Shown one piece after another: positions 1 through 13,574 of a stretch of DNA of 13,574 bases (within the stretch, counting starts at the first letter, position 1; the number at the start of each line of letters is the position of its first letter). The DNA is from Myxococcales bacterium (lineage in GTDB: Bacteria; Myxococcota_A; UBA9042; JABWCM01; BTVJ01): positions 1 to 13,574 of the forward strand of contig BTVJ01000136.1 of the NCBI GenBank assembly GCA_045863395.1, given 5' to 3'. The translations under genes were made by a program, and so were the position numbers. The notes below the pieces were generated by a model. That model was not told the DNA's origin, did not search any database, and was given only the letters and a program-made list of their open reading frames with translations.

Positions 1-1713
1 CTTGCCGTCGTCCACGAAGGTGACGGCCTCGCGCCACAACTCCTCACTGGCCGATGAGAACAGGTCGCGCTTGATGGCGTCAGCGAACGTCTGCACGTAC
101 ATCTCGCGCGAGGACCCGTCCGTGCGCAGCCCCACTTCGTTGTAGCCGCTCAGACCCTTGCGGGTCCGGTGCGCCATGTAGACGTTTGGATATCCGCTCT
201 CGTACAGCTTGTTACAGGTCAGCGCCGCCTCGGCGTTGTTCTCCGGCAGGATCCACGCCTTGCCGTAGTACCACGCCACCAGGAGGGCGTACTCCGCCAA
301 CTCCACCGGGCCGAGCCACTCGTCCGCGATGTACGCGACGTGCCGCGCCCTGGCGCGGTCCATCACAGACACCACGGCCCGATCCCGGCCGATGCCCTTC
401 GACACGTCCACACCAATGCAGTAGCTCGCGTCGGGACGTGGGCCTTCGAGGATGTTCAGGATCGGCACGCCAGGAATGAGGCGCGTCTCGAACCGCAGAG
501 TGCTCGGCTTCGCGTGGGCCTCCTCCAGCACGTTGTAGCCCTCGGCACTGATCGTCCCCTGCATAGGCGGGTGGCACTTCGGCAGGAACACCCGCTCGAT
601 CTTCGCGTTGTCGAAGCGACACGTCCCCGTCGCGGTGAATGCCTCCAGGTCGTCGGAGGGGAACTCCTGGCGGAAGTTCCGGACCTCGTTGTCGCACTTG
701 TACCGGATGCACCACCGGCGCCACAGCAGGCGTGACCAGGTGATGTGGTCCGGGTGCGCCGCAACCAGCTTGCGCTCGTCTTCGTCCATGCGCAGGCGCT
801 CTGACCGGTTGTGAGCGGCCGAGTCCATGCCGGCGAGCGCCAAGGCCAGCATGTCCTCGAACATGGCCTCGTCGCTCTCCGTGGGGACGTAGGCCGGATA
901 CCCGCGCAGGTGTGAGGCGTCGTAAAGCTGGTGAAGGAACCACGGCAGGAAGATCGCCCGGTAGCCGCCCTCCCCGAGCTTGGCCTTCTGCCAGGTTTCC
1001 CAAAAAAAACCAGACATTCCGTTGGCGGTCGACTCAATCAGGAACGCCACGTCAGGGCTCTCGGGGATGCTGTTCGCGAGGGCCACAGCGATCTCGCCAC
1101 CGCGTGGCCAGAACGCCACCTCCGTCGCGTGCACGAAGTCGACGCGGGAGCCGCGCCCGATGCCTCCCGAGCCCTGCCCGGCCGCGGACACCTTCTGCGT
1201 CCGCCCCGCCGCACAGTAGACCATGAGGCTGGAGCCGAGCCCCGGGTTCGTCGCGCGGTAGCCTCCGTCCGGGTTGTCGTACTCCAAGTTGCGGCCTGCG
1301 GCGCGGCGCTTCATGGGGCGCATCCATGCCGGCAGGTTCTGGTCGAATGTCTCCTGCATCGCGAACAGAGTCTTGGTGAGCGGATCGGAGTCAGCGACAA
1401 CGGTGATGTTCGCGTTCCGGCGGAACATCAGCATGTGGTGGGCCATGCCCTGCGCCCACGTCGAGATCCGGTGCCGACGGGCCTTGAGGATCACCAGGCG
1501 GACCGGGCGGCCCGTCGCCAGCTCCTCCTCGTAGATGTCGTGGACCAGGCTCTGCGTCGAGAGCATCGGCCCCCAGGGAACCACCTTGCTGTCCTCGTTT
1601 ACGACCTTGAGAGCCCCGCCCAAGTAGGAGCGCCGGTCCCGCCGGAACAGCTCCAGCATCTCCATCTGGCGAGCCTGAAGCTCGGCGCGACTAGCCCCTT
1701 GTGATGGCTGCAT
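1..1713 (-). CDS. terL: Phage terminase large subunit (partial, >571 aa, 3' end beyond the left edge)
   Basis: Manual translation from ATG at 1713 is open to position 1 (MQPSQGASRAELQARQMEMLELFRRD...). Motifs: LVILKARRHRIST (Walker A-like), FVHATEVAFW (Walker B), FLIESTANG (coupling motif), IFLPWF, FRQEFPSD, YCIGVDVSKG (RNase H-like nuclease Asp), ILPENN. Not in the ORF track because there is no stop in the window. Confidence 0.93.
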   Translation of the reverse strand, partial: MQPSQGASRAELQARQMEMLELFRRDRRSYLGGALKVVNEDSKVVPWGPMLSTQSLVHDIYEEELATGRPVRLVILKARRHRISTWAQGMAHHMLMFRRNANITVVADSDPLTKTLFAMQETFDQNLPAWMRPMKRRAAGRNLEYDNPDGGYRATNPGLGSSLMVYCAAGRTQKVSAAGQGSGGIGRGSRVDFVHATEVAFWPRGGEIAVALANSIPESPDVAFLIESTANGMSGFFWETWQKAKLGEGGYRAIFLPWFLHQLYDASHLRGYPAYVPTESDEAMFEDMLALALAGMDSAAHNRSERLRMDEDERKLVAAHPDHITWSRLLWRRWCIRYKCDNEVRNFRQEFPSDDLEAFTATGTCRFDNAKIERVFLPKCHPPMQGTISAEGYNVLEEAHAKPSTLRFETRLIPGVPILNILEGPRPDASYCIGVDVSKGIGRDRAVVSVMDRARARHVAYIADEWLGPVELAEYALLVAWYYGKAWILPENNAEAALTCNKLYESGYPNVYMAHRTRKGLSGYNEVGLRTDGSSREMYVQTFADAIKRDLFSSASEELWREAVTFVDDGK

Positions 1714-2128
1714 TGCGCCTCATGTCCTCGAGTTCCTCGAGCATGTCTTCGATGCTCGCCACCCGATCCTGTCCAGGCGGGAGCGGCCCGTAGGCACCCG
1801 CGATCTTTGCCGCCCTCTCGATAGCGCCGATGCGATCCCGCAGGATCTTCGCCTCGCTTTCGTTCTTCGGGTCCGCGAAAGCGCAGCGAAGCGCCATGAG
1901 TGCGAGCAGGTGTCGCGTTCTGTTGCCGGAGATCCCGTCCTCGTCCATCGCCTCGGACAGAAGCTCCATGGCCTTCTGCTCGGATTGGGAGAGCTTCTTC
2001 CCACCCATGGCGGGGATGGCGGGGACCTGAGCGCGTGGCGGGGGGGAGTAGCCCGTGGGCAGTATCGTCTGCTGGCCGTCTTGGGCCTGGATTACGAGCG
2101 ACGAGTCCTTGTTCCTTTGCTTGGGCAT
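1691..2128 (-). CDS. Putative terminase small subunit (145 aa, MPKQRNKDSS...RRNAAITRG)
   Basis: Helical, charged ORF directly upstream of terL and overlapping its start by 23 nt. Start taken as ATG 2128 rather than the track's 2422, which lies deep inside the recombinase. Function assigned by position and size only. Confidence 0.6.
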   Translation of the reverse strand: MPKQRNKDSSLVIQAQDGQQTILPTGYSPPPRAQVPAIPAMGGKKLSQSEQKAMELLSEAMDEDGISGNRTRHLLALMALRCAFADPKNESEAKILRDRIGAIERAAKIAGAYGPLPPGQDRVASIEDMLEELEDMRRNAAITRG

Positions 2129-3051
2129 ACGCTGACAAGCAGCGTACCAGCGGCTGCAACGTCCCGTCCACCCAGATGAACGTAGCGCCCCACCATGCGC
2201 GCTGACGTGTGCCGCATGTACTTCATGATCAACTGGTCGCTCGCCCCCCGCGCCGCGAGCGCCGTCCCGCAGGAATGACGGAGCCCGTGGAAGCTCACCC
2301 GGGCCACCCCGGCGCAGCGACACGCCTCTGCCAGCCACTCGTTGACCTTCGCGGCGTGAAGCGGGCGCCCGCGCTTGCTGTGCAGCAACGTGGGGCTGTT
2401 GAGCATCTTGGCGTGCTTCCATTGCTCTTGCAGAGGCCCGATCTCCTCCGCGTGCAACTCGTAGGTCACGGTGGCGTTGCCCTTGGTCGAGGTCGCCTCA
2501 CCGTCCGCGGCCATGTGCTGGAGCACCCGCACCCGGGCACCCACCGACCCCTTCTTCGCGCCATCCACAAAGGTCACATCCTGTGGGCGAAGCGCGCGAA
2601 CCTCCCCGTTGCGCAACCCGAGCCGCCCCGCCAGCCAGATGGCCAGCGCAGGCACCGGCTCCAGCGCCCACCACACCGCCCCCATGAGCTTCTGGAAGTC
2701 CTCCGGGTTCAGGTAGTTGTCGAAGTCCTCGTCGAGCTTCTCTGCCCGGCGGACTCGGACCTTCGCGAAGGGGTTGCGGGAGCACACCTCCCACTCGATA
2801 CCCTTCTCGAACACCCGAGAGAAGAGCTGCACGACGTTCTGGCGCGTCGACGCGCTCAGGCCTGCCGCCGCCAGGGCCGCCGCGAAGGCGTCCGCCTCGC
2901 GGATCGTGACCTTCCCCACGTCCTTCTCGCCGATATCGCCTATAGACAGATGGGCGCGCAGGTAGCACCCGCAGACCCGCAGGCTCGAACGTTTGAAGCT
3001 TTGGGGGGCGGCTACCGTGAGCCACTGTTCGATGAGTTCCTTGACCAGCAT
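2092..3051 (-). CDS. Tyrosine recombinase (phage integrase/XerC-like family), 319 aa
   Basis: Catalytic residues present: LGLRNGEV (R), STKG (K), FHGLRHS (HxxR), MRHTS (H), VGRYVH (Y). SAM-like core-binding region (LSASTRQNVVQLFSRVFEKGIEWEVCSRNPF). No obvious N-terminal arm-binding domain. SD AGGAGGTG just upstream. Confidence 0.93.
   Translation of the reverse strand: MLVKELIEQWLTVAAPQSFKRSSLRVCGCYLRAHLSIGDIGEKDVGKVTIREADAFAAALAAAGLSASTRQNVVQLFSRVFEKGIEWEVCSRNPFAKVRVRRAEKLDEDFDNYLNPEDFQKLMGAVWWALEPVPALAIWLAGRLGLRNGEVRALRPQDVTFVDGAKKGSVGARVRVLQHMAADGEATSTKGNATVTYELHAEEIGPLQEQWKHAKMLNSPTLLHSKRGRPLHAAKVNEWLAEACRCAGVARVSFHGLRHSCGTALAARGASDQLIMKYMRHTSARMVGRYVHLGGRDVAAAGTLLVSVCPSKGTRTRRS
2128..2146. 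repeat. Perfect inverted repeat TACGCTG-ACAAG-CAGCGTA at the terS start / recombinase 3' end
   Basis: 7-bp arms with a 5-bp spacer, read directly from the sequence. Confidence 0.8.
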
Positions 3052-3060
3052 GGGACACCT

Positions 3061-3103
3061 CCTGTATGTGCAGACAAGCTACAACATACGGAAGTGCTGT
3101 CAA
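3061..3103 (-). promoter_or_regulatory. Sigma70-type promoter for the recombinase (TTGACA-N16-TAGCTT) overlapped by an imperfect palindrome
   Basis: Perfect -35 TTGACA (3098-3103, - strand) and -10-like TAGCTT (3076-3081) in the 68-nt recT-int gap. GTATGT (3064-3069) and ACATAC (3084-3089) form an inverted pair straddling the -10. Confidence 0.6.
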
Positions 3104-3119
3104 GTGTGAATCTGTAGCG

Positions 3120-4124
3120 TTAGTCCGCGCCCGGCTCTGGCGCGTCGGAGGAGGGGCCCCACCCTCCGCGCTCGGCGGGGACCGACTCGGGGGCGGGCTT
3201 GGCCTTGGTCGAGCGGCTGGACTCGGGGAGCTGCTGGCGTGGGGGCTCGTCGGGCACCGTCACATCGCCCTCGATCATGGGCCCCACCGCGTCGGGGTCG
3301 CCCACGTCCGTCGCGTAGGCGTCCGTCATGAGGCGCCCGCCCTCGATGCGCGTAACGCGTTCCTCCGACCCGAACGCGGCCTCCGCCTCGGGGGTGAGGG
3401 TCAGGCTGTGACGCAGGCGCTGGATCGCGCTCTTGCGCGCCATGCGGTCCGGCCACTGGTGCCACGGCGACTCCGGCTCCTTGCCCGGCTTCGCGTACCG
3501 GATGGCGTTCATATGCGCCTCGGACGTGTCGCGGATCTTCGCGAGGTCCGACCCGGACAGCCACTCGACCGGGCCGTCGGTCCCGTCGAGCATCACGGCG
3601 CGGGCGTAGGCCCCGACGATCTCGCCACGGTCGCCCTTCAGGTAGGGCTTGTGAACCACGCGGTTGCAGCCGAGGTCCACGTCGATGTCGTCCGCCTCGA
3701 AGACAGCGTGCGCGATGATGCACTTCACGCCGCCGTGCCGCTCCATGAGCTTCCGCGAGCCGTGGTAGCCCATCTGGAAGTTCGCGACCATGAGCCCGCG
3801 CCCGGCGTCGTCGGTGCCGTACCGCTTGTCCCGGCGCGGAATCAGGAACGCCTCCTGCATCGTCGGGTCGAAGCTCAGACCAGCCGCGATGCCGCGGAGG
3901 ATCCCGCCGAACAGGGTTGCCGGCACGCACTCGGCCAGCTTCGGCGTCGTCTGGATGCACAGGAGCGCCGTCTCCATGACCACGCCCGGGTCGATGTTGC
4001 GTCCCGCGAGCCGCTGGATCTCGCTGGCCTTCTTGTCGAACCATGACCGCATGGTGTCCTGCACCCTCTCAGGGCGCTGCGCCACCGCCTGCACGGGGCG
4101 CCTCTGCACCTCTTGTCCCGCCAT
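3120..4124 (-). CDS. recT: RecT family single-strand annealing recombinase, 334 aa
   Basis: RecT motifs: TPKLAECVPATLFGGIL..IAAGLSFDP..QEAFLIPR, FQMGYHG..KLMER, EIVGAYA, SPWHQWPDRMARKSAIQRL; acidic disordered C-tail. Directly downstream of a YqaJ nuclease. Confidence 0.92.
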   Translation of the reverse strand: MAGQEVQRRPVQAVAQRPERVQDTMRSWFDKKASEIQRLAGRNIDPGVVMETALLCIQTTPKLAECVPATLFGGILRGIAAGLSFDPTMQEAFLIPRRDKRYGTDDAGRGLMVANFQMGYHGSRKLMERHGGVKCIIAHAVFEADDIDVDLGCNRVVHKPYLKGDRGEIVGAYARAVMLDGTDGPVEWLSGSDLAKIRDTSEAHMNAIRYAKPGKEPESPWHQWPDRMARKSAIQRLRHSLTLTPEAEAAFGSEERVTRIEGGRLMTDAYATDVGDPDAVGPMIEGDVTVPDEPPRQQLPESSRSTKAKPAPESVPAERGGWGPSSDAPEPGAD

Positions 4125-4127
4125 CGC

Positions 4128-5336
4128 CTACACCTTGCCCTTGCCCTTGCGGGCCTTGTAGCGGAGCACCCTGAACCGCGACTGCTTCATGAACCGCGGC
4201 CGGGTCTGCTCCCACTCCTGCTCCTCCTGCGGCGACAGGTCCTTCCTGACGCCCCACGATCCCCCCTGCTCTGCGTTGGTCAGCGCCGACCCGTCGAAGA
4301 ACGTGCCCGCATCCGCGCCGTCGAGCAGCACCCGCAGCATGTTCGCCGTCTGGTCGGCCGCCGCCTTGGCCGACTTCGCCGCGGCTTCGATCTCCTTGAC
4401 CTTGGCTTTCTCGTCCTCCCACTGCTGCACCAGGTCAAACGCCTCGTCGGAGAGCTCGCGCACACCGACGGCGGGGCGACCACCGACCCACACCTTGACC
4501 GCCTCCGTCGTCGACTCGTGCCCGTCGAGCATGGTCACGTCCAGCTCCGGCGCCTTGACCTTGGCCCAGAACGCGGCCGACTCATCGCGAAGCTGCGCGA
4601 TCTCCTGCTCGTCGCGGCGGAAGAACCGGATCAGGTCCCGGTGCCCGACCAGGGCAAGCACCATGCCCATGGTGAACAGGGGCCCGAACACCAGCATCCC
4701 GTGCGCCACCTGAAGCGCGTAGCTCTCGGGCAGGGTCGCGGCCTTGGTCGCCTCCCCGGTGGCGTTGTCGTCGAGGTGCTCCCACCACCCCTCCTCGCGC
4801 CGCGGGTACTTCACGTCCAGCACGACCATCTCCCCGTTGGGGTGCATGGCGATGGCGTCCGCCGAGTACAGGTTGTGCTCGTCGCCCGGAGTCATGGAAC
4901 GGACGGTGGCGCCGATCTGCACAACCAGCCAGTCGGGGTGCGAGACCCGGAAGCCGCGCACGATGCCGTGCTCCATCTGGCTGCCCCAGAACCGGGGGGA
5001 GGACTCCCCCTCGCGGTAGTCGGGCTCGTCCTCGATGGGTGCCTCGGAGCGCTTCTCCAGGTACAGGGCGCCCCTGCCCTTGAAGCGGTCGACGCCACGG
5101 ATGGCGCCGCGGTCGCTCCCGCCGATGCCCTGCCGCCTGGCGAACAGCCAGTCAGTGCGTGACAGGTCCCCGGTCCAGCAGACCACCTCGACGTTGCAGT
5201 AGGCTTCGAGCCACGCGCAGAGAGCGGCGCGGCGCGCCCCCTCCGGCATCGGGCTCTGCTCCAGCGCCAGCACGTCCAGGCGGGCAAACAGGTCACCCGT
5301 AGCGCGGCTCTCGCCTTTGCTTTGCCTCAATTCCAT
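4128..5336 (-). CDS. YqaJ-like viral recombinase exonuclease (lambda-Exo family), about 402 aa
   Basis: WLFARRQGIGGSD..AI.G....K....LYLEK signature, WGSQME, SADA...VLDVK (PD-(D/E)xK), YALQVAHGM. ATG 5336 has SD AAGGAG; an alternative GTG at 5357 overlaps the upstream stop. Confidence 0.88.
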   Translation of the reverse strand: MELRQSKGESRATGDLFARLDVLALEQSPMPEGARRAALCAWLEAYCNVEVVCWTGDLSRTDWLFARRQGIGGSDRGAIRGVDRFKGRGALYLEKRSEAPIEDEPDYREGESSPRFWGSQMEHGIVRGFRVSHPDWLVVQIGATVRSMTPGDEHNLYSADAIAMHPNGEMVVLDVKYPRREEGWWEHLDDNATGEATKAATLPESYALQVAHGMLVFGPLFTMGMVLALVGHRDLIRFFRRDEQEIAQLRDESAAFWAKVKAPELDVTMLDGHESTTEAVKVWVGGRPAVGVRELSDEAFDLVQQWEDEKAKVKEIEAAAKSAKAAADQTANMLRVLLDGADAGTFFDGSALTNAEQGGSWGVRKDLSPQEEQEWEQTRPRFMKQSRFRVLRYKARKGKGKV

Positions 5337-5353
5337 GTTCTCTCCTTCGCGGG

Positions 5354-6325
5354 TCACGCCCGCAGCTCGCGCAAGTCAGGGCCAAAGACGAAGATGTCCG
5401 GCCCACAGATCCCCCGGATGCGACTCTTGACCGTCTGGCCCCTGCTCTCCCCCAGCACGTCCAGCGGCACGTTCGAGCTGAAGACCGTGCGAAGTCCCTC
5501 GTGCCCACCCTTCGCCCGGTGCTCGTAGCGGTAGCCCAGCAGCTCCTCGTACCAGTCGCCCCGAGCGCCGGTCCACGAATTGGCCCGGCCGCACTCGTCC
5601 ACCACGAGGAGCGGGATGGTTCGGAGCTCCGGGGTCGCCCACTCCGCCCACTGGTCCTTGTTGGACTTCGCCGCAGAGGCGATGGCCGCTAGGCGCTGCT
5701 CCGAGACGATGGCGACGTTGAGCCCGTCTTTCCAGCAGCGCGCCGCCAGGCGACACACGGCAAAGGTCTTGCCCGTCCCCGCCGAGCCGTAGATGAACGC
5801 CCCGGCGCGCTTGCCCTGGCGCACCGCGTAGAGCGCCTTGTACGCCTCCTCCAGCCCCGGCTCGCAGTCGGTGTGTGTCGGCGCTCCAAGCGGGTCACGA
5901 GGCCACCACGGGGGCGGGCTGTCCTTCACCGCTGCCCACGAAGGCCATACGTCCCGGTGAGACGCTCGGGTCCAGCGGTCGGCCGCCAGCTCAGACAGCG
6001 CCACGTCATGCGTCACCGCGCACACCGTCGAGTCCGGGTCGTCGAAGCGGGTCAACAGCGGCTTGTCGGATAGAACGCACTGAGGGCACGACCCGTCCGC
6101 CGAGTAGTCGCCGCGGTAGTGGACAGGGATCCGCACCGTCGGGTGCTTCGAGCACGGGTAGCTCTGAACGGGCTGTGGGTTGTCGGAGGCGTCGATGCAC
6201 GCTTGCCGGACGTGGGCCGGTGCGTTCTCCGCGAACGCCTTGCGCAGCTCGGCCTTGTTGAACGCGGTGCCAGCGTGCGCCGCTCGCGCTGCCCGGCTGA
6301 TGGCGTCGTACATGTTCGTGCTCAA
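5354..6325 (-). CDS. DnaC/IstB-like AAA+ helicase loader
   Basis: Walker A GSAGTGKT, Walker B LLVVDE, sensor TVFSSN, arginine finger KSRI, FGPDLR end; N-terminal C/H cluster (CSKH...CPQC). Directly follows the initiator (TTG 6325 overlaps its TGA; alternative ATG at 6313). Confidence 0.88.
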   Translation of the reverse strand: MSTNMYDAISRAARAAHAGTAFNKAELRKAFAENAPAHVRQACIDASDNPQPVQSYPCSKHPTVRIPVHYRGDYSADGSCPQCVLSDKPLLTRFDDPDSTVCAVTHDVALSELAADRWTRASHRDVWPSWAAVKDSPPPWWPRDPLGAPTHTDCEPGLEEAYKALYAVRQGKRAGAFIYGSAGTGKTFAVCRLAARCWKDGLNVAIVSEQRLAAIASAAKSNKDQWAEWATPELRTIPLLVVDECGRANSWTGARGDWYEELLGYRYEHRAKGGHEGLRTVFSSNVPLDVLGESRGQTVKSRIRGICGPDIFVFGPDLRELRA

Positions 6326-7380
6326 AACGGTATCTCCGCGTCAAGGGCTGCGACTTCTTCAATGCTCATGCCCGCATAGGCCCTGGGGGCCATGTTCTTG
6401 TTCTCCGCCCACGGGTTGTAGCCGTGGTTGGGGTTGAAGCTCCCGTCCGGGTTCGTTGGAGCTCCCGGGGCCCCGAAGCCTTTGCGTTGGCCGTTGACGG
6501 GGGCGCCGCTGGGCTGTGCGCCCGCTCGCCACTCCGCCTCCAGCTTGCCGTCCTTCCTCGCCCGCTCCATCCAGGTCCCCAGAGCGCCCGTCGTGTTCGT
6601 GTACCTGCGCCCCTTCGGGCTCTCCTGCCAGTCCTCAAAGGCAGCGATGCGCCACTTCCAGTCCACTGGCCAGCCGAGGAGCTTCTCCCGGTCGATGGCC
6701 CAGCGGACCACGCAGTCAACGGTCTGCGTCGCCGGCCCGTCGGTTCTGGCAAGGGCTCGAAGCTGGTACTCCACCAAGGGCTGCATGTGCGCCGGGACAG
6801 GCACAGGCTCGGGAGGGGGTGTCGGCTCCTTCTTGGCCTTCCTCTTCGGCGCAGCCGGTTCCACGGGAGGCGGCGCGAGCGCGAAGCCTCGCGCGCTACC
6901 CTCCGAAGGAGGGTTCTTGTCTTGTCTTGTCTCCTCTACTCTACTCTCCTCTACTCTAGGCGGAATTTTCCGGCAAAGTCCGGAACTTTCCGGAACTTTC
7001 CGGAACAGGCCGGGAAGCTCTGAAACATCAATAAACTCCGTTGGTTCAGGGCTGCGTCGCTGTCGGCGCTTCCGTACCATCTCGCGCGGCTGGTCCGCCT
7101 CCCACCCACCGAACTCCGCCCACAAGGCTCCATCATCCGCCTTGTACAGCCCGATCAACTGCAACAGGGCCATCTCGATGAGGGCGGCCTCGACGTCCTC
7201 CAGGGAACGCTGAGACGCTGGAGTGCACATCAGCTTGATGCGCAGCGGGTCTACCTGGACCGCGCCGTAGTCGTCAGCGTGCAGCGGTAGCCGCATCGCC
7301 AGGATCTGCCCGTACTCCGAGAGCATGGCGTGCCTCGGGTCGGTGCACACCGCCTTCTGCGTCGCTCGCCAGTCGGCCAC
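6322..7380 (-). CDS. Phage replication initiator (O-like/DnaD-like), 352 aa
   Basis: N-terminal winged-helix-type segment (LPLHADDYG...LIEMALLQLIGLY...WEADQ), a central repeat-coded linker (RKVPESSG, RVEESRVEETRQDK) and a Pro/Lys-rich hinge. Lies between a Cro-like gene and a DnaC-like loader. Confidence 0.8.
   Translation of the reverse strand: MADWRATQKAVCTDPRHAMLSEYGQILAMRLPLHADDYGAVQVDPLRIKLMCTPASQRSLEDVEAALIEMALLQLIGLYKADDGALWAEFGGWEADQPREMVRKRRQRRSPEPTEFIDVSELPGLFRKVPESSGLCRKIPPRVEESRVEETRQDKNPPSEGSARGFALAPPPVEPAAPKRKAKKEPTPPPEPVPVPAHMQPLVEYQLRALARTDGPATQTVDCVVRWAIDREKLLGWPVDWKWRIAAFEDWQESPKGRRYTNTTGALGTWMERARKDGKLEAEWRAGAQPSGAPVNGQRKGFGAPGAPTNPDGSFNPNHGYNPWAENKNMAPRAYAGMSIEEVAALDAEIPF
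6898..7040. repeat. Putative phage origin of replication inside the initiator gene
   Basis: Six phased 10-bp units at 6961-7020 (CGGAATTTTC, CGGCAAAGTC, CGGAACTTTC, CGGAACTTTC, CGGAACAGGC, CGGGAAGCTC); pyrimidine-rich 5-mers TCTTG x3 and CTCTA/CTCTC at 6915-6958; hairpin ACCCTCC-GAA-GGAGGGT at 6898-6914; AT-rich patch at 7021-7036. Confidence 0.75.
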
Positions 7381-7383
7381 GGC

Positions 7384-7602
7384 TCACCCCGCCTCGTCGC
7401 TGTCAGCTCCATCGGCGGCCTCAGGAGCGAGGGCGAGCCCCAGCGTCCTGAGCAGCTTCTCCAGTACCTCATGGCCCTTCGTGCGGCCCAGCTCGCAGTT
7501 CACGATGACCGCGTACCCCACGCCAGCCTCGACGGCCAGCTTCTCCCGAGACCAGCCCCGCGCTTCCCTCGCCTCTCGAATGCTCTCGCCAACATCAACC
7601 AT
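7384..7602 (-). CDS. XRE/Cro-like helix-turn-helix regulator, 72 aa
   Basis: MVDVGESIREAREARGWSREKLAVEAGVGYAVIVNCELGRT is a typical HTH_3 pattern. SD TGGAGGTG supports ATG 7602 rather than the track's 7686. Confidence 0.88.
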   Translation of the reverse strand: MVDVGESIREAREARGWSREKLAVEAGVGYAVIVNCELGRTKGHEVLEKLLRTLGLALAPEAADGADSDEAG

Positions 7603-7741
7603 TGCGGCACCTCCATTGCCGGCATGGTGCCACGGACAATTTTGTTGCACAAGTGAAAAAACATTGTCGATTGCGCTTGCATCCATCCCGAAGGTTATGC
7701 ATGATGGCCCCAGATGGACGGCAACACGAAGGAGGACGACG
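7603..7741. promoter_or_regulatory. Divergent promoter/operator region
   Basis: Low-GC gap between the divergent arms. 34-bp imperfect palindrome at 7635-7668 (13/16 arm matches); candidate rightward promoter TTGCAT-N17-CATGAT (7677-7705); weaker leftward TTGTGC-N17-CACCAT with extended TG (7652-7624); SDs on both sides. Confidence 0.65.
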
Positions 7742-8026
7742 ATGCTGTACGAGGTAGAGCGCGAGGACGTGGACCCGGTCTACACGGCCACGGTGACCGA
7801 CGCGAATGGAGCGGCGCAGCTAGGGCTCCCGGACGGCGTGGTGGCGACGGTCTACCGCTGCACCGTGAGGCACATCACCCAACCCGTCATGGCGGCGCTC
7901 CTCAACGCCTGCGTCGATGGGCGCCCACTCCCGTGGGACGAGCGGGTTCCTGTGCGGCGGTACATTGGCCAGCCGGGGGACGGGCCGAACCTTGGCAACG
8001 AGGGGCACGGGGAGGGGGAGTCGTGA
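7742..8026 (+). CDS. Hypothetical protein, 94 aa (MLYEVEREDVDPVYTATV...)
   Basis: Strong SD AAGGAGG before ATG 7742; its TGA overlaps the rusA GTG (GTGA coupling). Confidence 0.72.
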   Translation: MLYEVEREDVDPVYTATVTDANGAAQLGLPDGVVATVYRCTVRHITQPVMAALLNACVDGRPLPWDERVPVRRYIGQPGDGPNLGNEGHGEGES

Positions 8027-8508
8027 TCTACACCTTCACGCTGAACCTTCCGCCCACGGCGAAGGGTCGCCCCCGGGTGGCGATGCGCGGGAAGGGCGAT
8101 GCGGCGCGTCCGACGATGTACACGCCCCCGAAGACCGTCTCATTCGAGGCGGCGGTAGCCCATGCGGCTCGCGCTGCCATGGGCCCGGTGGTACTGGAAG
8201 GCCCCATCCGGCTCGACATGCTGCTGGTGCTGCCGCGCCCCGGACGGTTGATGCGGAAGTCGGACCCATCGGGGCTCGTGTACGCCCCGAAGAAGCCGGA
8301 CCGGGACAACATGGAGAAGGCCGTCATGGACGGCATGAGCTCGTGTTGGCGCGACGACGCCCAGGTGGTGCGCGGAGAGCCGATCAAGGTCTACGCGGAG
8401 AAGAATGGGCGTCCGCGGACGATGGTTCGCGTCGAGGTGCTCGACGAAGGCAAGGGGCTCCCGGGGTTGCTCGATTGGATCGTGCGCCCCGGACCAACGG
8501 AGGAATGA
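8023..8508 (+). CDS. rusA: RusA family Holliday junction resolvase, 161 aa
   Basis: P.AKGRPR, YTPPKT..FE, KPDRDNMEKAVMDGM and WRDDAQVV catalytic motifs; GTG start at 8023 with GGAG SD. Confidence 0.92.
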   Translation: MIYTFTLNLPPTAKGRPRVAMRGKGDAARPTMYTPPKTVSFEAAVAHAARAAMGPVVLEGPIRLDMLLVLPRPGRLMRKSDPSGLVYAPKKPDRDNMEKAVMDGMSSCWRDDAQVVRGEPIKVYAEKNGRPRTMVRVEVLDEGKGLPGLLDWIVRPGPTEE

Positions 8509-8879
8509 TGGGCTGGCTGAAAGGCAAGAACGGCGACTACGTGTCGCAACTGCGGGAGATGCTCGCCGCAGGATGGACGGGCGAGCAGGTGCAGAAGCTA
8601 CTCCGGTGGTCCGATGAGCAGTACGGCCTCGTCATGGCCGGAAAGCGCATCATCGGGAGCCGGGAACGCGCCCTGGTCGAGAAGTGGCACAACAGAGCTC
8701 CGCTCGCCGCGTTGGCGACGGACGACGAGACGAAGACGGAGGACACCGATGTTCCACAAGCAGAAGCGAACGCTGGACCTGAGCAACCTGCTGTGCCGGC
8801 AGGAGAAGCACGGCCCCGACGAGACGGTGCCGGCAGTGGACCTGTCGGTCAGCCTCACCGTGGCCGTCGAGGAGCTTGA
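8508..8879 (+). CDS. Hypothetical protein, possibly HTH-like DNA-binding (about 123 aa)
   Basis: ATGATG overlaps the rusA stop, SD GGAGG. N-terminal helical pattern LREMLAAGWTGEQVQKLLRWSDEQYGLVMAGKR resembles an HTH. The C-terminal ~43 codons overlap the next gene. Confidence 0.55.
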   Translation: MGWLKGKNGDYVSQLREMLAAGWTGEQVQKLLRWSDEQYGLVMAGKRIIGSRERALVEKWHNRAPLAALATDDETKTEDTDVPQAEANAGPEQPAVPAGEARPRRDGAGSGPVGQPHRGRRGA

Positions 8880-9846
8880 GGAGCTAACCCCCGGCGTGTC
8901 CGCCCTCCGGGGCGCCGTGTCCCTGTCGGACCTTCCCGACGTGGGGCCCTTCGACGTGGAGGTCGAGTGCGACGGGATGGATGGGCCCGTGCTTGAGCGC
9001 GGCACCTACCTGCGGAAGCCGCGGGCTGACGTGGCGTACACGGCCCCGAGGACCCCGAAGCCCAAGCCGGCGCCGAAGCGCGTGGTCGACGAGGCACAGG
9101 AGGCGCTCCCTGGCGTTGAGACGCCACCGCCCCAGGAAGAGGCGCCCTTGCCCGTCGAGGATGCCACGGAGCCCGTGGGGCGCCACGACTGCACGCTGAG
9201 CGGCAAGATCGCCATACACACGGACGAGAACTTCCCGTACTTCGCGCTGCACGATGCCGTTGGCGCGACGGTCGCGGTGACCTTCATGGAGCACGCGGCG
9301 ATGCGTGCGGAGGTCGAGGAGCTGCTGGTCGAGACGCCGGTGCAGACGTTCATCGACTGCCGCGGTGAGCAGCTCGTCATTGAGGACAGGCGCCGTGAAT
9401 TCATTGGAGCGGTCGTCGCCAAGCGCCAGGCCGGGGAGGAGGTCGCGGCGGCCTTCTGGCGAGTGTCCACCGACTTCGCCACGCGGTACGCGCCGAAGCC
9501 GATGGAAGTCGCGCCGTACCCTCACGAGGAGGAGGCGCCAGACCACCCCAACGAGTGGGAGCTGCTGCCTGGGGCGTGGTTCAACCGGGCCGACGTGATG
9601 TTGACCGCGAGCGGCATCTACGAGGCGTCGCTGGCGCCGGAGAGCAAGGCTGCGCTGCCTGCCAAGCAGGTGGTCATCCGCACCACGAAGGCCCTCTCGG
9701 GCAAGAAGGGCAACGTGCCGGTGCACCCGGCCTTCATGGCGATGGTCGAGGCCATGATCGCTGAGTGGGACCAGATCACGAAGGATGCGCTTGACGCGTC
9801 GGACTCCGGGCATGAGACGGAGGAAGGTGCCCAGGTATTGGCATAG
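8749..9846 (+). CDS. Hypothetical phage protein, 365 aa (MFHKQKRTLDLSNLLCRQEKHGPDETVPAVDL...)
   Basis: SD GGAGG before ATG 8749; high GC3 codon usage; acidic, with a Pro-rich linker. The R.EKHG....VPA.DL N-terminus recalls uncharacterised phage early proteins. Confidence 0.72.
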   Translation: MFHKQKRTLDLSNLLCRQEKHGPDETVPAVDLSVSLTVAVEELEELTPGVSALRGAVSLSDLPDVGPFDVEVECDGMDGPVLERGTYLRKPRADVAYTAPRTPKPKPAPKRVVDEAQEALPGVETPPPQEEAPLPVEDATEPVGRHDCTLSGKIAIHTDENFPYFALHDAVGATVAVTFMEHAAMRAEVEELLVETPVQTFIDCRGEQLVIEDRRREFIGAVVAKRQAGEEVAAAFWRVSTDFATRYAPKPMEVAPYPHEEEAPDHPNEWELLPGAWFNRADVMLTASGIYEASLAPESKAALPAKQVVIRTTKALSGKKGNVPVHPAFMAMVEAMIAEWDQITKDALDASDSGHETEEGAQVLA

Positions 9847-10096
9847 AGAGGCAGCCTTGAACTTCCCCGATGACTGGAGCGTGTTCTTTCGCAGGTGTAC
9901 CCGTGGCCACCTGTGGCATGAGAGCGAGGGGCGTGAGTGCGGTCAGTGCTCTAACGAAGAGTCTGACCGGGAGCAGAAGCGGGAGTATTGGCCGCTGAAC
10001 GAAGCTGGCTTCACCATGTGCCCGGACCTTCCGGGTCGCGAACGAGACTGTTGTGAAACTTGCGGCTGGCCGGCAGGTCGGCACACGCCGTTCTGA
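9827..10096 (+). CDS. Small Cys/His-rich putative zinc-binding protein, about 89 aa
   Basis: CTRGH...CGQC and C...CCETCG...H motifs. Fills the gap between two co-directional genes; GTG start uncertain. Visibly lower GC than its neighbours. Confidence 0.5.
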   Translation: MPRYWHREAALNFPDDWSVFFRRCTRGHLWHESEGRECGQCSNEESDREQKREYWPLNEAGFTMCPDLPGRERDCCETCGWPAGRHTPF

Positions 10097-10111
10097 TTCT
10101 TGAGGACGAAA

Positions 10112-11497
10112 ATGAGCACAATCGTTAGGTTGAAGATCGACGGCGTGAAGCGCATCCGCGCGGCGGAGCTCGTCCCCGACCCCAAGGACCCCGCGATCTG
10201 GCTGGCCGGGCCCAACGGCGCCGGCAAGAGCACCGTGCTCGACTCCATCGAGTACGCCCTGGGCGGGGCCAAGGCACTCCCGCCGCAGCCGATCCAGACG
10301 GGCCAGCAGACGGCCCGCATCGTGCTGGAGCTGAGTGACGGGCTCACCATCACCCGCAGGATGCGCCTGGCCGATGACGGGTCCTGCGAGTCTACCCTCG
10401 TGGCGGAGCGGGCCGGCGCAGTGTTGCGCAAGCCCCAGGACGTGCTCGACGCGCTGGCCGGCAAGGCGGGCATGGGCGCGCCGATGATCCTGGACCCGCT
10501 GCGGTTCGTCCGGGAGACGACCTCCCAGGCCGCGACGCTGCGGGCGGTGGCCGGCATCGACACGAGCGCGCTCGACGCCAGGATCGCCGCGCTGGAGGGC
10601 GAGCGCCGCGACTGCGGCCGTGACGGCAAGCTCCTCGCCGGACAGGCGGCAGAGGCCAGCGCGGCGGTCGGGCCGGAGCCCGCCGCACCCGCCGATGCGC
10701 CGCCGTCCACCGCGGACGCGGCCCGCGCCGCCCTCGCCGCGGCGAGCGCAGAGGGTGCGGAGGCCGAGCAGCTCGCCGAGGCCCTGCGCCTCGCGACCAG
10801 GGAGCGGGACACCGCCGAGGATGCGGCGGCCCGCGCCGAGAACGAGGTGGACCGGCTGCGCCGCGAGCTGGAGGCGGCAGAGAGCGTGGCCGCGACAGCG
10901 TGCACCGCCGCGGACGCAGCCGCCGACCGCTACGACGCCGCGCACCTGGCCGCCGCGGCCCGGCCCGTCCCCGACCTGTCCCCGCTGCGTGCGACGGTTG
11001 AGGCCGCCATCCAGGCCGACGCGGAGGCCCGCCGAGCCGCTGACGTGGCCCGCGCCGAGCGCGTGGCCTGGGACCAGCGCCGCCAGCGAGCGGAGCGGGT
11101 GGCGCAGCAGACGCAGGAGGCCCGCGAGCGGTACGCGGCGCTCACCGCGCAGATCGAGACCGCGAGGGCAGAGCGAGTCGCTGCGATCGAGGCCGCGAAG
11201 TGGCCGGTCCCGGGGCTGGGGATCGACGGCGACGTGGTCACCTACCGAGGGCTCCCGCTGGAGCAGGCGTCGCAGGCCGAACAGCTCCGGGTGGCGTGCG
11301 CCGTGGGGCTCGCCCTGCGCTCCGAGATCCGGGTCCTGCTGGTGCGCGACGCGAGCCTGCTCGACGCCGAGTCGCGACGGCTCCTCGTGGAGCTCGCCCG
11401 GGAGCACGACGCACAGGTGTGGGCAGAGGTGGTCGACGACGACCCGGAGCCGGGCGACGGGGTGATCATCGTGATGGACGGGGGGGTGAGGCCATGA
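10112..11497 (+). CDS. SMC/Rad50-like (AAA_23-type) ABC-ATPase with central coiled coil, 461 aa
   Basis: IVRLKIDGVKRI N-terminus, Walker A GPNGAGKSTVLDSI, long Ala/Glu/Arg coiled coil, degenerate signature LEQASQAEQ, Walker B/D-loop VLLVRDASLLD, QVWAEVV. SD GAGGA. Confidence 0.85.
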   Translation: MSTIVRLKIDGVKRIRAAELVPDPKDPAIWLAGPNGAGKSTVLDSIEYALGGAKALPPQPIQTGQQTARIVLELSDGLTITRRMRLADDGSCESTLVAERAGAVLRKPQDVLDALAGKAGMGAPMILDPLRFVRETTSQAATLRAVAGIDTSALDARIAALEGERRDCGRDGKLLAGQAAEASAAVGPEPAAPADAPPSTADAARAALAAASAEGAEAEQLAEALRLATRERDTAEDAAARAENEVDRLRRELEAAESVAATACTAADAAADRYDAAHLAAAARPVPDLSPLRATVEAAIQADAEARRAADVARAERVAWDQRRQRAERVAQQTQEARERYAALTAQIETARAERVAAIEAAKWPVPGLGIDGDVVTYRGLPLEQASQAEQLRVACAVGLALRSEIRVLLVRDASLLDAESRRLLVELAREHDAQVWAEVVDDDPEPGDGVIIVMDGGVRP

Positions 11498-11778
11498 AGG
11501 GCGAGTCGCAGATCGACATGCGCGGACTGCGCGCCGCGCAAAAGAGCATCGAGGCCGAGTGGCCCGACTGCACCGTGTCCGTCGGGCTCATCGCGTGGGC
11601 AGGGCCTGGCGAGCCGGACAGGCGCAGGCACGTCGACTATAGCGCGTGCGTCCTGCGGGACACCGTGATCGCCTACGCCCGGACCGGCGAGCCGGGCGAG
11701 CTGCTCGACGCGCTCCGGGCTGACACGCTCACGCACGACGTCTCCTGCGAGACGGAGGCTCCCGATGACCGCGCCTGA
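11494..11778 (+). CDS. Hypothetical protein, 94 aa (MKGESQIDMRGL...)
   Basis: ATGA overlap with the ATPase stop; GAGG SD; codon usage like flanking genes. Confidence 0.65.
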   Translation: MKGESQIDMRGLRAAQKSIEAEWPDCTVSVGLIAWAGPGEPDRRRHVDYSACVLRDTVIAYARTGEPGELLDALRADTLTHDVSCETEAPDDRA

Positions 11779-11917
11779 CCCGGATCTCGCCAGCGCCACG
11801 GACCGCTGGCCGTGTAGGCGCGCCGCGATCCCGGCGCTGGCCGAGGCAGTCTGGCGGCTCATCTTGGCGCTGGAGGCTGCGCTGGTGTGTGAGGAGAGGC
11901 AGGATGTGCAGTCGTGA
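11765..11917 (+). CDS. Small hypothetical protein, 50 aa (MTAPDPDLASATDRWPCRRAAIPALAEAVWRLILALEAALVCEERQDVQS)
   Basis: SD GGAGG at 11754-11758; bridges two overlapping co-directional ORFs. Below the track's size cutoff. Confidence 0.5.
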   Translation: MTAPDPDLASATDRWPCRRAAIPALAEAVWRLILALEAALVCEERQDVQS

Positions 11918-12455
11918 CGACGGCGCCACACGAGGAGATGGCACGATGCCCGCGCTGATGATCCTAGAGCTGCTGCATCGCGCAGAGGCGGAGCGCGACA
12001 GGGCCGTCGCCGCCTTGTCCCGCGTCCTCGTGGCCGCCCTCGGCTGCGAGTGCCAGGATGGCCACGCCTGCCACGTCCACGGTGACCCGCTCGGCTGCGT
12101 GGACAGGGCCGTCGGGCACATCGACGACACAATCGCAGACAACATGCGCCTCGCCGACGAGGCCGAGTGCATCCATTCGCGCCTCACGGCGCGCGGCATC
12201 GAGGAGCACGAGTCCGGCGTCTCGCGCGTCGGGCCCGGAGAGGGCAACGACCCAGGGCCACGGCGCGACCTGTTGGAGCGCGTGGACATGCTGCTGGACG
12301 GACTCGACGCCGCCCGCGAAGAGCTGGAGGAGTACATCCGCGCCACCAGGCTGCGGATCGGGTGGCTGGAGGAGCACGCGCACGCGCTGGAGGCAGAGCA
12401 GGCGCGGGCGCGGGCCCGCACACTGACACCCTCGTGGAATGACCGCGAGGATTGA
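11904..12455 (+). CDS. Hypothetical coiled-coil protein with a Cys/His cluster (about 170-183 aa)
   Basis: Heptad-rich helices flank CECQDGHACHVHGDPLGC. Start is ATG 11904 or ATG 11946, both with GAGGAG-type SDs. Confidence 0.62.
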   Translation: MCSRDDGATRGDGTMPALMILELLHRAEAERDRAVAALSRVLVAALGCECQDGHACHVHGDPLGCVDRAVGHIDDTIADNMRLADEAECIHSRLTARGIEEHESGVSRVGPGEGNDPGPRRDLLERVDMLLDGLDAAREELEEYIRATRLRIGWLEEHAHALEAEQARARARTLTPSWNDRED

Positions 12456-12457
12456 CG

Positions 12458-12505
12458 CCCCGAGAGGGGCAAGGAGCGAGACCCCGAGAGGGGCAAGGAG
12501 CGAGA
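12458..12505 (+). repeat. Perfect 24-bp tandem duplication CCCCGAGAGGGGCAAGGAGCGAGA x2 containing a hairpin and SD
   Basis: Units at 12458-12481 and 12482-12505, ending 1 nt before ATG 12507. Confidence 0.95.
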
Positions 12506-12506
12506 G

Positions 12507-12932
12507 ATGACCATCACGAGAGACGACCTGCCGCAGTACGCGGCGCAGACCCGGCAGTACCGCAAGACCGCGGTGACGAGCGCCTTCGAGCTGACCGAGC
12601 CGCACACCATCTGCATGCCAGAGGGCAGCATCGATGCCCAGGCCGGCGACTTCTGCTGCATCGACTCCCGCGGCGAGCCCTACCCCTGCGCGCGGGACGT
12701 GTTCCTCCGGACGTACGAGGAGGTGCCGATGGCCAGGCTTGCGGACGAGCCGATGCTTCAGTGGTTCGAGTATGCCCACCTGCCATCGAAGCTCCAGGAT
12801 GTGAGCAAGCCCTTCGCCGAGCTGGCGATCCGCATCGTGGCCACACTGCCCCGCAACCCCGAGCGCACGGTGGCCCTCCGCAAGCTCCTCGAGGCCAAGG
12901 ACTGCGCGGTCCGGGCGCTGCTGTCCACGTAG
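12507..12932 (+). CDS. Two-domain phage protein, 141 aa: PGDYG-like beta domain plus Acb2/Tad1-like helical hairpin; candidate anti-defence sponge
   Basis: aa 18-73: YRK...PEG...AQAGDF..IDSRGEPYPC..DVFLRTYEEV. aa 83-139: WFEYAHLP..LQDVSKPF.ELA......LP..PERTVALRKLLEAKDCAVRA. SD AAGGAG. The CDS is secure; the function is inferred. Confidence 0.75.
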   Translation: MTITRDDLPQYAAQTRQYRKTAVTSAFELTEPHTICMPEGSIDAQAGDFCCIDSRGEPYPCARDVFLRTYEEVPMARLADEPMLQWFEYAHLPSKLQDVSKPFAELAIRIVATLPRNPERTVALRKLLEAKDCAVRALLST

Positions 12933-12984
12933 GCACCAAGCCCGGGGCGCCCGCGGCCCCGGCAAGGACACTGGAGGGACCCCG

Positions 12985-13574
12985 ATGACCGCGTTTGACC
13001 TCGACCTCGCCCGCGCGCTCGGGGCGGGCGGGCAGCTACGACAGGAGGATCGGATGGACAGTCCCCGCCACCACGCCTGGCGCATCGTCCGCGACGGCGG
13101 TCTCACCGCCACCTGCGAGCGGTGCGGGCGCATGGAGATGCTCGGCTATGTCCCCGCGCGAGCGCTCAGACTTGCGACGAAGGGTATCCAGGCGCTAAGC
13201 GCGCATGACGAGGCAGTTCTCGGGGAGTGGGTGGAGGCGCTGTATGCCGGGGACGCTGCCTGCGACGACGGGGACGCCTGCACCACCGGCGACGTCTGCG
13301 GCGGCGGCGTGTGCTCGGGGACGGGCGGGACCCAGTGCAACGACGGCAACCCGTGCACCGACGACTCCTGCAAGGAGGGCGTGGGCTGCGTCTACGTCGC
13401 CAACCAGGCCCCCTGCGACGACGGCAACGCCTGCACCACCGGGGACGCCTGCGCGGCCCAGAAGTGCGTCGGCGGCCCTGCGACCCAGTGCGGGGACGGC
13501 AACCCGTGCACGGACGACTCCTGCGACCCGGCGACGGGCTGCAAGGCCACCAACAACACGGTGCCCTGCAACGA
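12985..13574 (+). CDS. Chimeric ORF (partial): phage-like Zn-ribbon N-terminus in frame with Cys-rich CDDGNPCT repeats
   Basis: Open from ATG 12985 (SD GGAGG) or in-frame ATG 13054 (SD AGGAGG) to the window end: ...HHAWRIV...ATCERCG...EWVEALYAGDAA|CDDGDACTTGDVC... Missing from the ORF track because there is no stop. Confidence 0.7.
   Translation, partial: MTAFDLDLARALGAGGQLRQEDRMDSPRHHAWRIVRDGGLTATCERCGRMEMLGYVPARALRLATKGIQALSAHDEAVLGEWVEALYAGDAACDDGDACTTGDVCGGGVCSGTGGTQCNDGNPCTDDSCKEGVGCVYVANQAPCDDGNACTTGDACAAQKCVGGPATQCGDGNPCTDDSCDPATGCKATNNTVPCN
13261..13574 (+). repeat. 153-bp (51-aa) coding tandem repeats of the myxobacterial/Dictyostelium CTDC-like Cys-rich type
   Basis: Unit 1 (13261-13413): CDDGDACTTGDVCGGGVCSGTGGTQCNDGNPCTDDSCKEGVGCVYVANQAP. 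Unit 2 (13414-13566): CDDGNACTTGDACAAQKCVGGPATQCGDGNPCTDDSCDPATGCKATNNTVP. A third unit starts at 13567. Confidence 0.9.

Follow-up and report, generated by a model that had tools for sequence, protein, structure and literature searches.

The gene at positions 12507 to 12932 encodes a 141-aa prophage accessory protein that we read as a fusion of two mobile modules of the phage anti-signaling toolkit. By shared motif and predicted fold, the N-terminal half is a single PGDYG half-unit. The C-terminal half appears from sequence comparisons to be distantly related to Acb2 and Tad1, as a divergent branch of their hairpin superfamily with an altered pocket and not as a member of Acb2. Modules of both kinds are attached to known sponges in other phages, and the protein therefore probably blunts bacterial immunity. 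We consider the case evenly balanced for an anti-defense fusion whose C half sponges a nucleotide signal outside the five that have been screened with its relatives.

Gene structure and genomic context

The window, that is, the whole stretch analyzed, is a complete contig of 13,574 nt from a genome of 8.77 Mb with 71% GC, whose many cysteine-repeat genes would suit a myxobacterium-like host. The 141-aa gene sits downstream of an ATPase gene, among small accessory genes. The features of the window are as follows, with the basis of each in parentheses.

1..13254, no strand assigned: prophage-type context with integrase, RecT, YqaJ, IstB-like ATPase, HTH, RusA and SMC-like ATPase (Pfam, PHROG)
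12458..12505, + strand: tandem duplication of a 24-nt unit with a GGAG ribosome-binding site, upstream of the 141-aa gene (sequence)
12507..12932, + strand: gene for the 141-aa two-domain protein, P0001 (ORF and codon pattern; one copy of each half in the genome)
12549..12722, + strand: N half, aa 15-72, one PGDYG-type unit of about 58 aa, predicted as five strands and a C-terminal helix (PHROG, alignment, model)
12719..12724, + strand: GGAGGT, four bases 5' of the Met75 ATG, a candidate internal ribosome-binding site (read from sequence)
12723..12743, + strand: linker, aa 73-79, with an in-frame ATG, Met75, at 12729 (domain limits)
12744..12929, + strand: C half, aa 80-141, predicted as a short helix and a two-helix hairpin, PHROG 1761/5120 family (PHROG, alignment, model)

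Third-position GC is 0.94 in the ORF at 12507-12932, as it is in RecT, and 0.50 and 0.47 in two overlapping alternative frames, which are ruled out by this codon pattern. The gene is confirmed as real and as having two domains, and neither half is duplicated in the host genome, which was searched for both. The 24-nt duplication in front of it is exact. The GGAGGT could possibly serve a separate C-half product starting at Met75; alternatively it may be a by-product of Glu-Glu-Val codons.

The original prediction divided the protein into two halves joined by a linker, each with its own motif, and all of these lie where it placed them. The halves match separate sets of PHROG families (aa 15-72, phrog_36774 at E 3.8e-8 and three others; aa 77-140, phrog_1761 at E 3.6e-28, phrog_5120 and, weakly, phrog_1454), each exists in stand-alone versions, and each is modeled with a high pLDDT (93.8 for the N half and 95.6 for the C half). 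A Pfam scan of the whole protein gave nothing at E≤0.1, PF14083 and PF24729 included. Searches of the host genome with those two families likewise returned nothing, with the built-in controls also silent and T4 positive, and the 141-aa gene is absent from the three weak matches of the host-genome searches.

The last ORF of the contig (12985-13574) is chimeric. Its segment 13012-13293 shares 84.6% identity with a prophage-like gene of contig C2, its segment 13255-13542 shares 97.6% with a host cysteine-repeat (Dicty_CTDC) gene of contig C7, and the two parts meet at a common word of about 29 nt. The end of the contig was probably misassembled here, with recombination as the alternative. The gene start located 3' of the 141-aa gene is common to other prophage-like regions of the genome (C2, about 216300-216700; C113, about 4270-4360).

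Relationship of the C-terminal domain to Acb2 and Tad1

The AF2 model of the C half places two long antiparallel helices at residues 17-36 and 41-62 of 64, an arrangement that is a common one. H91, L92, S100, E119, R125, K126, E129, K131, D132 and R136 are near-invariant; across 68 C-family sequences H91 is conserved in 99%, and L92 and R136 in 100%. The original prediction likened this hairpin to Acb2 and Tad1. A distant kinship of the hairpins finds support, but HMM searches gave no family membership.

The C half lies below the PF24729 cut-off of 27 bits, and neither the whole protein nor the C half alone matches that family at E≤0.1. The controls scored above the cut-off (T4 Vs.4, 71.4 bits; a short-family protein, 80.6 bits). 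In three of three viral records the C-family loci were not even first-look PF24729 candidates, with T4 positive. When profiles were compared with hhalign, the C family aligned with the short PF24729 family over 35-37 columns at a probability of 41-58% and a pairwise E of 1-3e-4. The score of this comparison was reached by none of 200 column shuffles and by two of 200 shuffles of seven-residue blocks. The short PF24729 profile comprised 76 non-redundant domains in the script and 34 of the 42 intended rows in A5. A global alignment of the two families gives only 1.4%, which makes the mapping of H91-L92 the weaker part of the comparison.

The short PF24729 family in turn picks up the solved Acb2_43 (9PTQ; E 4.9e-7) and, only weakly, Tad1 and Vs.4 (E of about 0.04). 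Acb2_43 is a 3'cADPR sponge in which H5, L6 and K55 touch 3'cADPR (PMC12393519). Mapped transitively through the short family, H91-L92 and R136 would fall on these pocket residues, with the weakest assignment for H91-L92. K19 of Acb2_43, a basic residue of helix 1 that contacts the diphosphate, aligns with S100, which is Ser in 99% of the C family; 61% carry K or R at the residue after it. K131-D132 stands where Acb2_43 has its M-W/F motif, and the loop is about five residues shorter. Compared directly with T4-type Acb2, the C-family profile gives a probability of 0.6%, which is not significant, and against solved sequences it finds no sponge at E≤10. In the Atlas the C family lies near PF24729-bearing clusters both by features (18% of members) and by structure (TM 0.83, 79%).

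Fold searches with the C-half model gave generic helical matches only (best Z 6.9), and among the fold matches listed for the model of either half there is no Acb2, Tad1, Tad2, Acb4, Sequestin or Lockin. This absence is not counted against the kinship of the C half because a hairpin of 64 residues is too generic.

Membership of either half in Acb2, Tad1, Tad2 or Acb4, which had been put forward as candidates, is rejected, with no match by HMM to Pfam families or to solved sequences. For Tad2, Acb4, Sequestin and Lockin there is no Pfam match, and solved sequences gave no match up to E 10; the Pfam copy used also left unnamed the Lockin-like domain of the long N-family proteins.

Fusions of the two domains to sponges

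The supplements of Tal (PMC12265669), Hadary (PMC12393519) and Chang 2024 (PMC11722364) were searched by motif, and the names of fusion partners rest on the sheet in which a row is listed together with reading of its sequence. Sequestin is the partner of the C family in 18 rows, which are redundant and mostly from Burkholderiales, and Tad1 is the partner in one row (Hadary, PMC12393519). These 18 Sequestin fusions come from 24 C-motif matches, of which two are chance and four are Dec-like domains joined to the C domain with no visible Sequestin part in the tabulated sequence. The N family is paired with Sequestin in seven IMG/VR rows and two Klebsiella phage rows out of 12 motif matches (the other three are ambiguous), with Lockin in at least two rows of three motif matches, with Acb4 in at least three rows and with Acb2 in one. 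The view that these domains are partners in sponge fusions is upheld in the tabulated sequences, where both are joined to proven sponges (Sequestin and Tad1 for the C domain; Sequestin, Lockin, Acb4 and Acb2 for the N domain). The rows are highly redundant, with few events behind them, and both domains fuse to many unrelated sequences as well.

Phage N-family fusions involve Acb4, Sequestin, Lockin, Acb2 and MazG; elsewhere the partners are patatin, RyR and kinase domains. Among 30 longer N-family matches, taken from 8,000 scored candidates, seven are LockinB-like (PF26760, judged by eye), five are patatins, one is a RyR protein and one a MazG protein, and two of the 85 N-half relatives scanned are kinase proteins. 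Sequestin itself was discovered through its fusion to Tad2 and Acb4.

Neighboring genes were scanned at 78 of 85 C-family loci, after removal of duplicates, with ORFs called by length only and on the same strand. The 246 neighboring ORFs include two PF24729 proteins, five capsid proteins and no Tad2, Acb4 or Sequestin. An anti-defense island around C-family genes, which was considered, is unsupported by these crudely called ORFs. The two PF24729 neighbors are short genes of that family, at L020 2683-2937 and L062 3601-3819, each no more than two genes away from the C-family gene.

Published screening of C-family proteins

In supplementary file 6 of the Tal 2025 screen (10.1101/2025.07.12.664507; PMC12265669), 124 candidates passed a pocket filter, and eight of these are stand-alone C-family proteins. 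One of the eight matches locus L064 and is identical to the C half of the 141-aa protein at 43 of 56 positions (77%). The tabulated oligomer predictions are a hexamer for seven and a dimer or hexamer for the eighth. Searching the table with six motifs turned up no N-family protein. The data as printed support a sponge-like architecture for the C family.

For these eight proteins 37 of 40 transformations worked and culture collapse was recorded in none of the 37 (Thoeris I, 7 proteins tested; Thoeris II, 8; cGAMP-CBASS, 8; Pycsar-cCMP, 6; Pycsar-cUMP, 8). This argues against the five corresponding ligands, and the messenger is probably one other than 3'3'-cGAMP, 3'cADPR, His-ADPR, cCMP and cUMP. 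Most of the ligands suggested in the original prediction (3'3'-cGAMP, gcADPR, cCMP and cUMP) are covered by the five systems tabulated, in which the eight C-family relatives showed no anti-defense effect.

The same data bear on the alternative that the C half has its origin in the Acb2 fold and binds a non-immune nucleotide, a metabolite or a host protein, and is not a sponge for a signal. The uniform negatives of the eight proteins in the printed table would be expected if this were so, as would the loss of the helix-1 Lys/Arg, the replacement of M-W/F by K-D, and the lack of clustering of C-family genes near known anti-defense genes in the neighbor scan. Tal et al. themselves state that most pocket-bearing candidates are expected not to be sponges (PMC12265669). 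Set against these points are the tabulated fusions of the C family to Sequestin and Tad1, and the scope of the screen as printed, which covered five signals, with more described since. Moreover, 19 of 84 accepted sponge homologs were also inactive against seven systems in the Hadary data (PMC12393519), so a negative screen is not final. We regard a non-sponge C half as improbable, and slightly favor the C half as a sponge for some signal.

The N-terminal domain

In its model, the N half consists of five strands closed by a helix. Its best matches in BFVD are PGDYG-named proteins (E 4e-5), and PF14083 is matched at E≤0.01 by 67 of the 85 relatives scanned, which were drawn from the best 150. 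The resemblance to PGDYG proteins that was claimed at the outset is supported. The N half itself is below the curated PF14083 cut-off and is not a formal match. The Pfam model straddles parts of two tandem units, and the 141-aa protein has one. Ten of 11 tallied conserved positions of the domain are intact; the exception is Met37, in the T-x-E-G motif, whose counterpart in 174 of 201 domains is a Thr. The half is net acidic, with 6 K/R and 10 D/E. A search of solved folds with the model gave no good match (best Z 3.1). In the literature searched, coverage of which was incomplete, no published function was found for PGDYG, PF14083 or the family of either half, and PF24729 appeared there for other genes only.

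Five patatin phospholipases (P0278, P0279, P0283, P0284 and P0286) carry a single C-terminal PGDYG unit and are represented in the Atlas by a cluster of 110 members that come mostly from Bacteroidota. These patatin-PGDYG proteins are candidate signal-activated effectors. A membrane RyR-domain protein and protein kinases carry PGDYG doublets at their C-termini, and arrays that reach about 18 units adjoin a Zeta-toxin-like domain (P0282, P0256, P0150, P0265, P0122 and P0129).

The N half may instead be a Dec-like docking module, for a capsid or another surface, that carries a fused sponge, which would make the protein one sponge on a tether. A sister domain joined to the C half, taken as a profile of four sequences, finds 6E3C, the Dec protein of phage L (E 0.0023), and aligns with the N family over 36 columns at E 1.1e-3 and a probability of 20%. 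The N model superimposes on 6E3C with Z 2.4 and rmsd 3.7 over 51 residues. The Hadary methods record the removal of sponge homologs that also bear a 6E3C domain (PMC12393519). The N domain of Dec contacts the capsid (PMC6449081), and capsid genes stand within two genes of the C family at five of the 78 loci. All of these links to Dec are weak: unrelated SH3/Tudor-like folds reach the same Z of 2.4, and there are only four sequences in the sister alignment. The 141-aa gene lies in a non-structural region, and ligand sensing is a better fit than capsid binding for a domain found on patatin, kinase, RyR and MazG proteins. Docking of this kind is, like a non-sponge C half, an improbable reading. 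A role for the N half as a ligand binder in anti-defense we hold tentatively, at a little short of evenly balanced. Of the original reading of this half, the PGDYG kinship is supported; the resemblance to the capsid-binding Dec domain and the loss of the near-invariant Thr were not part of it.

Phylogeny of the domain pairing

The homolog search returned 3,244 clusters or proteins of 77-247 aa. All of the 119 homologs listed, the query excluded, contain the C half, and ten of them also contain the N half in the same order. Most matches are proteins of 77-125 aa with the C domain alone, and the original prediction had described this half as a stand-alone phage protein. The C half occurs in 318 phage records, with hosts that include Vibrio, Erwinia, Acinetobacter, actinobacteria and others, and in four of 301 genomes sampled from the phylum of the host, the host included. 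The search with the N half returned 295 representatives, the best 150 of which comprise 80 single-unit proteins (≤115 aa), 33 short tandem doublets, 19 proteins with a single unit and extra sequence, 17 long multi-unit proteins and one unclassified. A word-based search started from the N region retrieved no sequence other than the query.

The original prediction set the fusion in a poorly studied host group. The N+C pairing is not peculiar to that group, and the 141-aa copy is one of several N+C proteins. The tree of the N core (42 columns, 86 rows) has few columns and its bootstrap is not settled. In it, the 141-aa protein lies apart from the other fusions and groups with P0123 (support 99/95), a stand-alone protein of 74 aa that is 58% identical, has a similar start and terminates at the domain boundary. 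The N+C label requires six changes on this tree, at least five of which are forced by strong branches. This means that the pairing has arisen more than once, or has been gained or lost repeatedly.

That the fusion is incidental in this copy, with neighboring genes merged, the C half still made from Met75 and the N half decaying, is highly improbable: it would account for the GGAGGT four bases 5' of the Met75 ATG, the stand-alone nearest relative ending at the domain boundary, the replaced Thr and the exact sequence being a singleton cluster, but the same N+C order recurs in independent lineages, ten of the 11 tallied N positions are kept, and the GGAGGT may stem from the E-E-V codons.

Other domains are also joined to the C half. 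A second beta domain, related to Dec, is found in P0010, P0036, P0049 and P0113. A further recurrent N-terminal module of about 45 aa is found in P0015, P0021 (which is without a Pfam match), P0022, P0037, P0038, P0041, P0089, P0090, P0096 and P0111, and at loci L002, L008, L044 and L059. Stand-alone-type N-family genes are present in the model Bacillus phage SPO1 (gp34.82; L082 5863-6141) and among viruses of archaea (ORF 9 of Haloarcula virus SH1). The record labels 'ferritin-like protein', 'anti-TRAP domain-containing' and 'Rz' on relatives are backed by no family scan.

A possible mechanism

The C half would probably form an Acb2-like hexamer, by analogy with the printed predictions for its eight relatives, and trap a phosphate-containing immune messenger between subunits. 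The predicted pocket would consist of H91/L92 and R136 together with the family-specific invariant residues S100, K131 and D132. Trapping would lower the free messenger below the level that a host effector needs. The N half would be a small-ligand-binding module with a site of its own, and would most likely act as a pair, because the bacterial versions are tandem doublets. The domain context suggests that the phage N half may be a decoy of the sensor module on patatin, RyR and kinase proteins.

It is unlikely that both halves work in the 141-aa copy, or that both are sponges. More doubtful still is the fuller proposal that both trap immune messengers outside the screened set and that PGDYG is a new second-messenger receptor copied as a decoy.

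The host genome contains a CD-NTase adjoining a SAVED gene (L315, contig C24, about 59090-61344), a TIR locus with ThsB-type TIR, TIR_2, TPR-S/MAP3K_TRAF_bd and TPR-S-patatin genes (L316, contig C11, about 120654-126497), and a Cas10 (contig C78, 7036-8550). The products of these genes could be targets of the 141-aa protein; such genes are common.

Sponges have been a route by which new immune messengers were found, as with Tad1 and MoTad2 (PMC12393519). The C and N families are widespread, no ligand is assigned to them, and their fusion partners include no fewer than five proven sponge families. With five obvious ligands set aside by the published negatives, a ligand pull-down becomes a pointed experiment. 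If both halves are orphan sponges, either could be used as bait for a new signaling defense system, and the C family, present in hundreds of phage genomes, would trap another abundant messenger beyond the five signals. The patatin-PGDYG proteins offer a candidate host effector.

Comparison with known systems

PGDYG proteins (PF14083) share their motif and predicted fold with the N half, but the Pfam model covers portions of two tandem units, against one unit here. The likeness to the N-terminal domain of phage L Dec (6E3C; PMC6449081) is a weak transitive sequence link and a weak structural alignment; unlike Dec, the N half has no trimerizing spike and stands in a non-structural context, and the two are 14% identical (Z 2.4).

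Acb2_43 and the short PF24729 proteins, like the C half, have two long antiparallel helices of similar length, with an aligned turn and second helix, and the transitive mapping suggests that equivalents of H5, L6 and K55 are kept. The C half differs from Acb2_43 in scoring below the PF24729 threshold, in having Ser for K19 and K-D for M-W/F, and in its shorter N-terminal loop. In the Hadary homolog file (PMC12393519) the C-family motif appears once, as the Tad1 fusion, and is absent from the Acb2 sheet.

Fusion of sponge modules as such is already published. The fused sponges Acb4-Tad2 of Pasteurella phage Pm86 and Acb4-Sequestin (Ab09 gp59) have been shown to block two systems. The 141-aa protein is unlike these in that neither Pfam nor the solved sequences tie either of its modules to Acb4, Tad2 or Sequestin. 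It resembles them in architecture: two small modules, each of which also occurs alone, are joined in one chain of about 140-150 aa.
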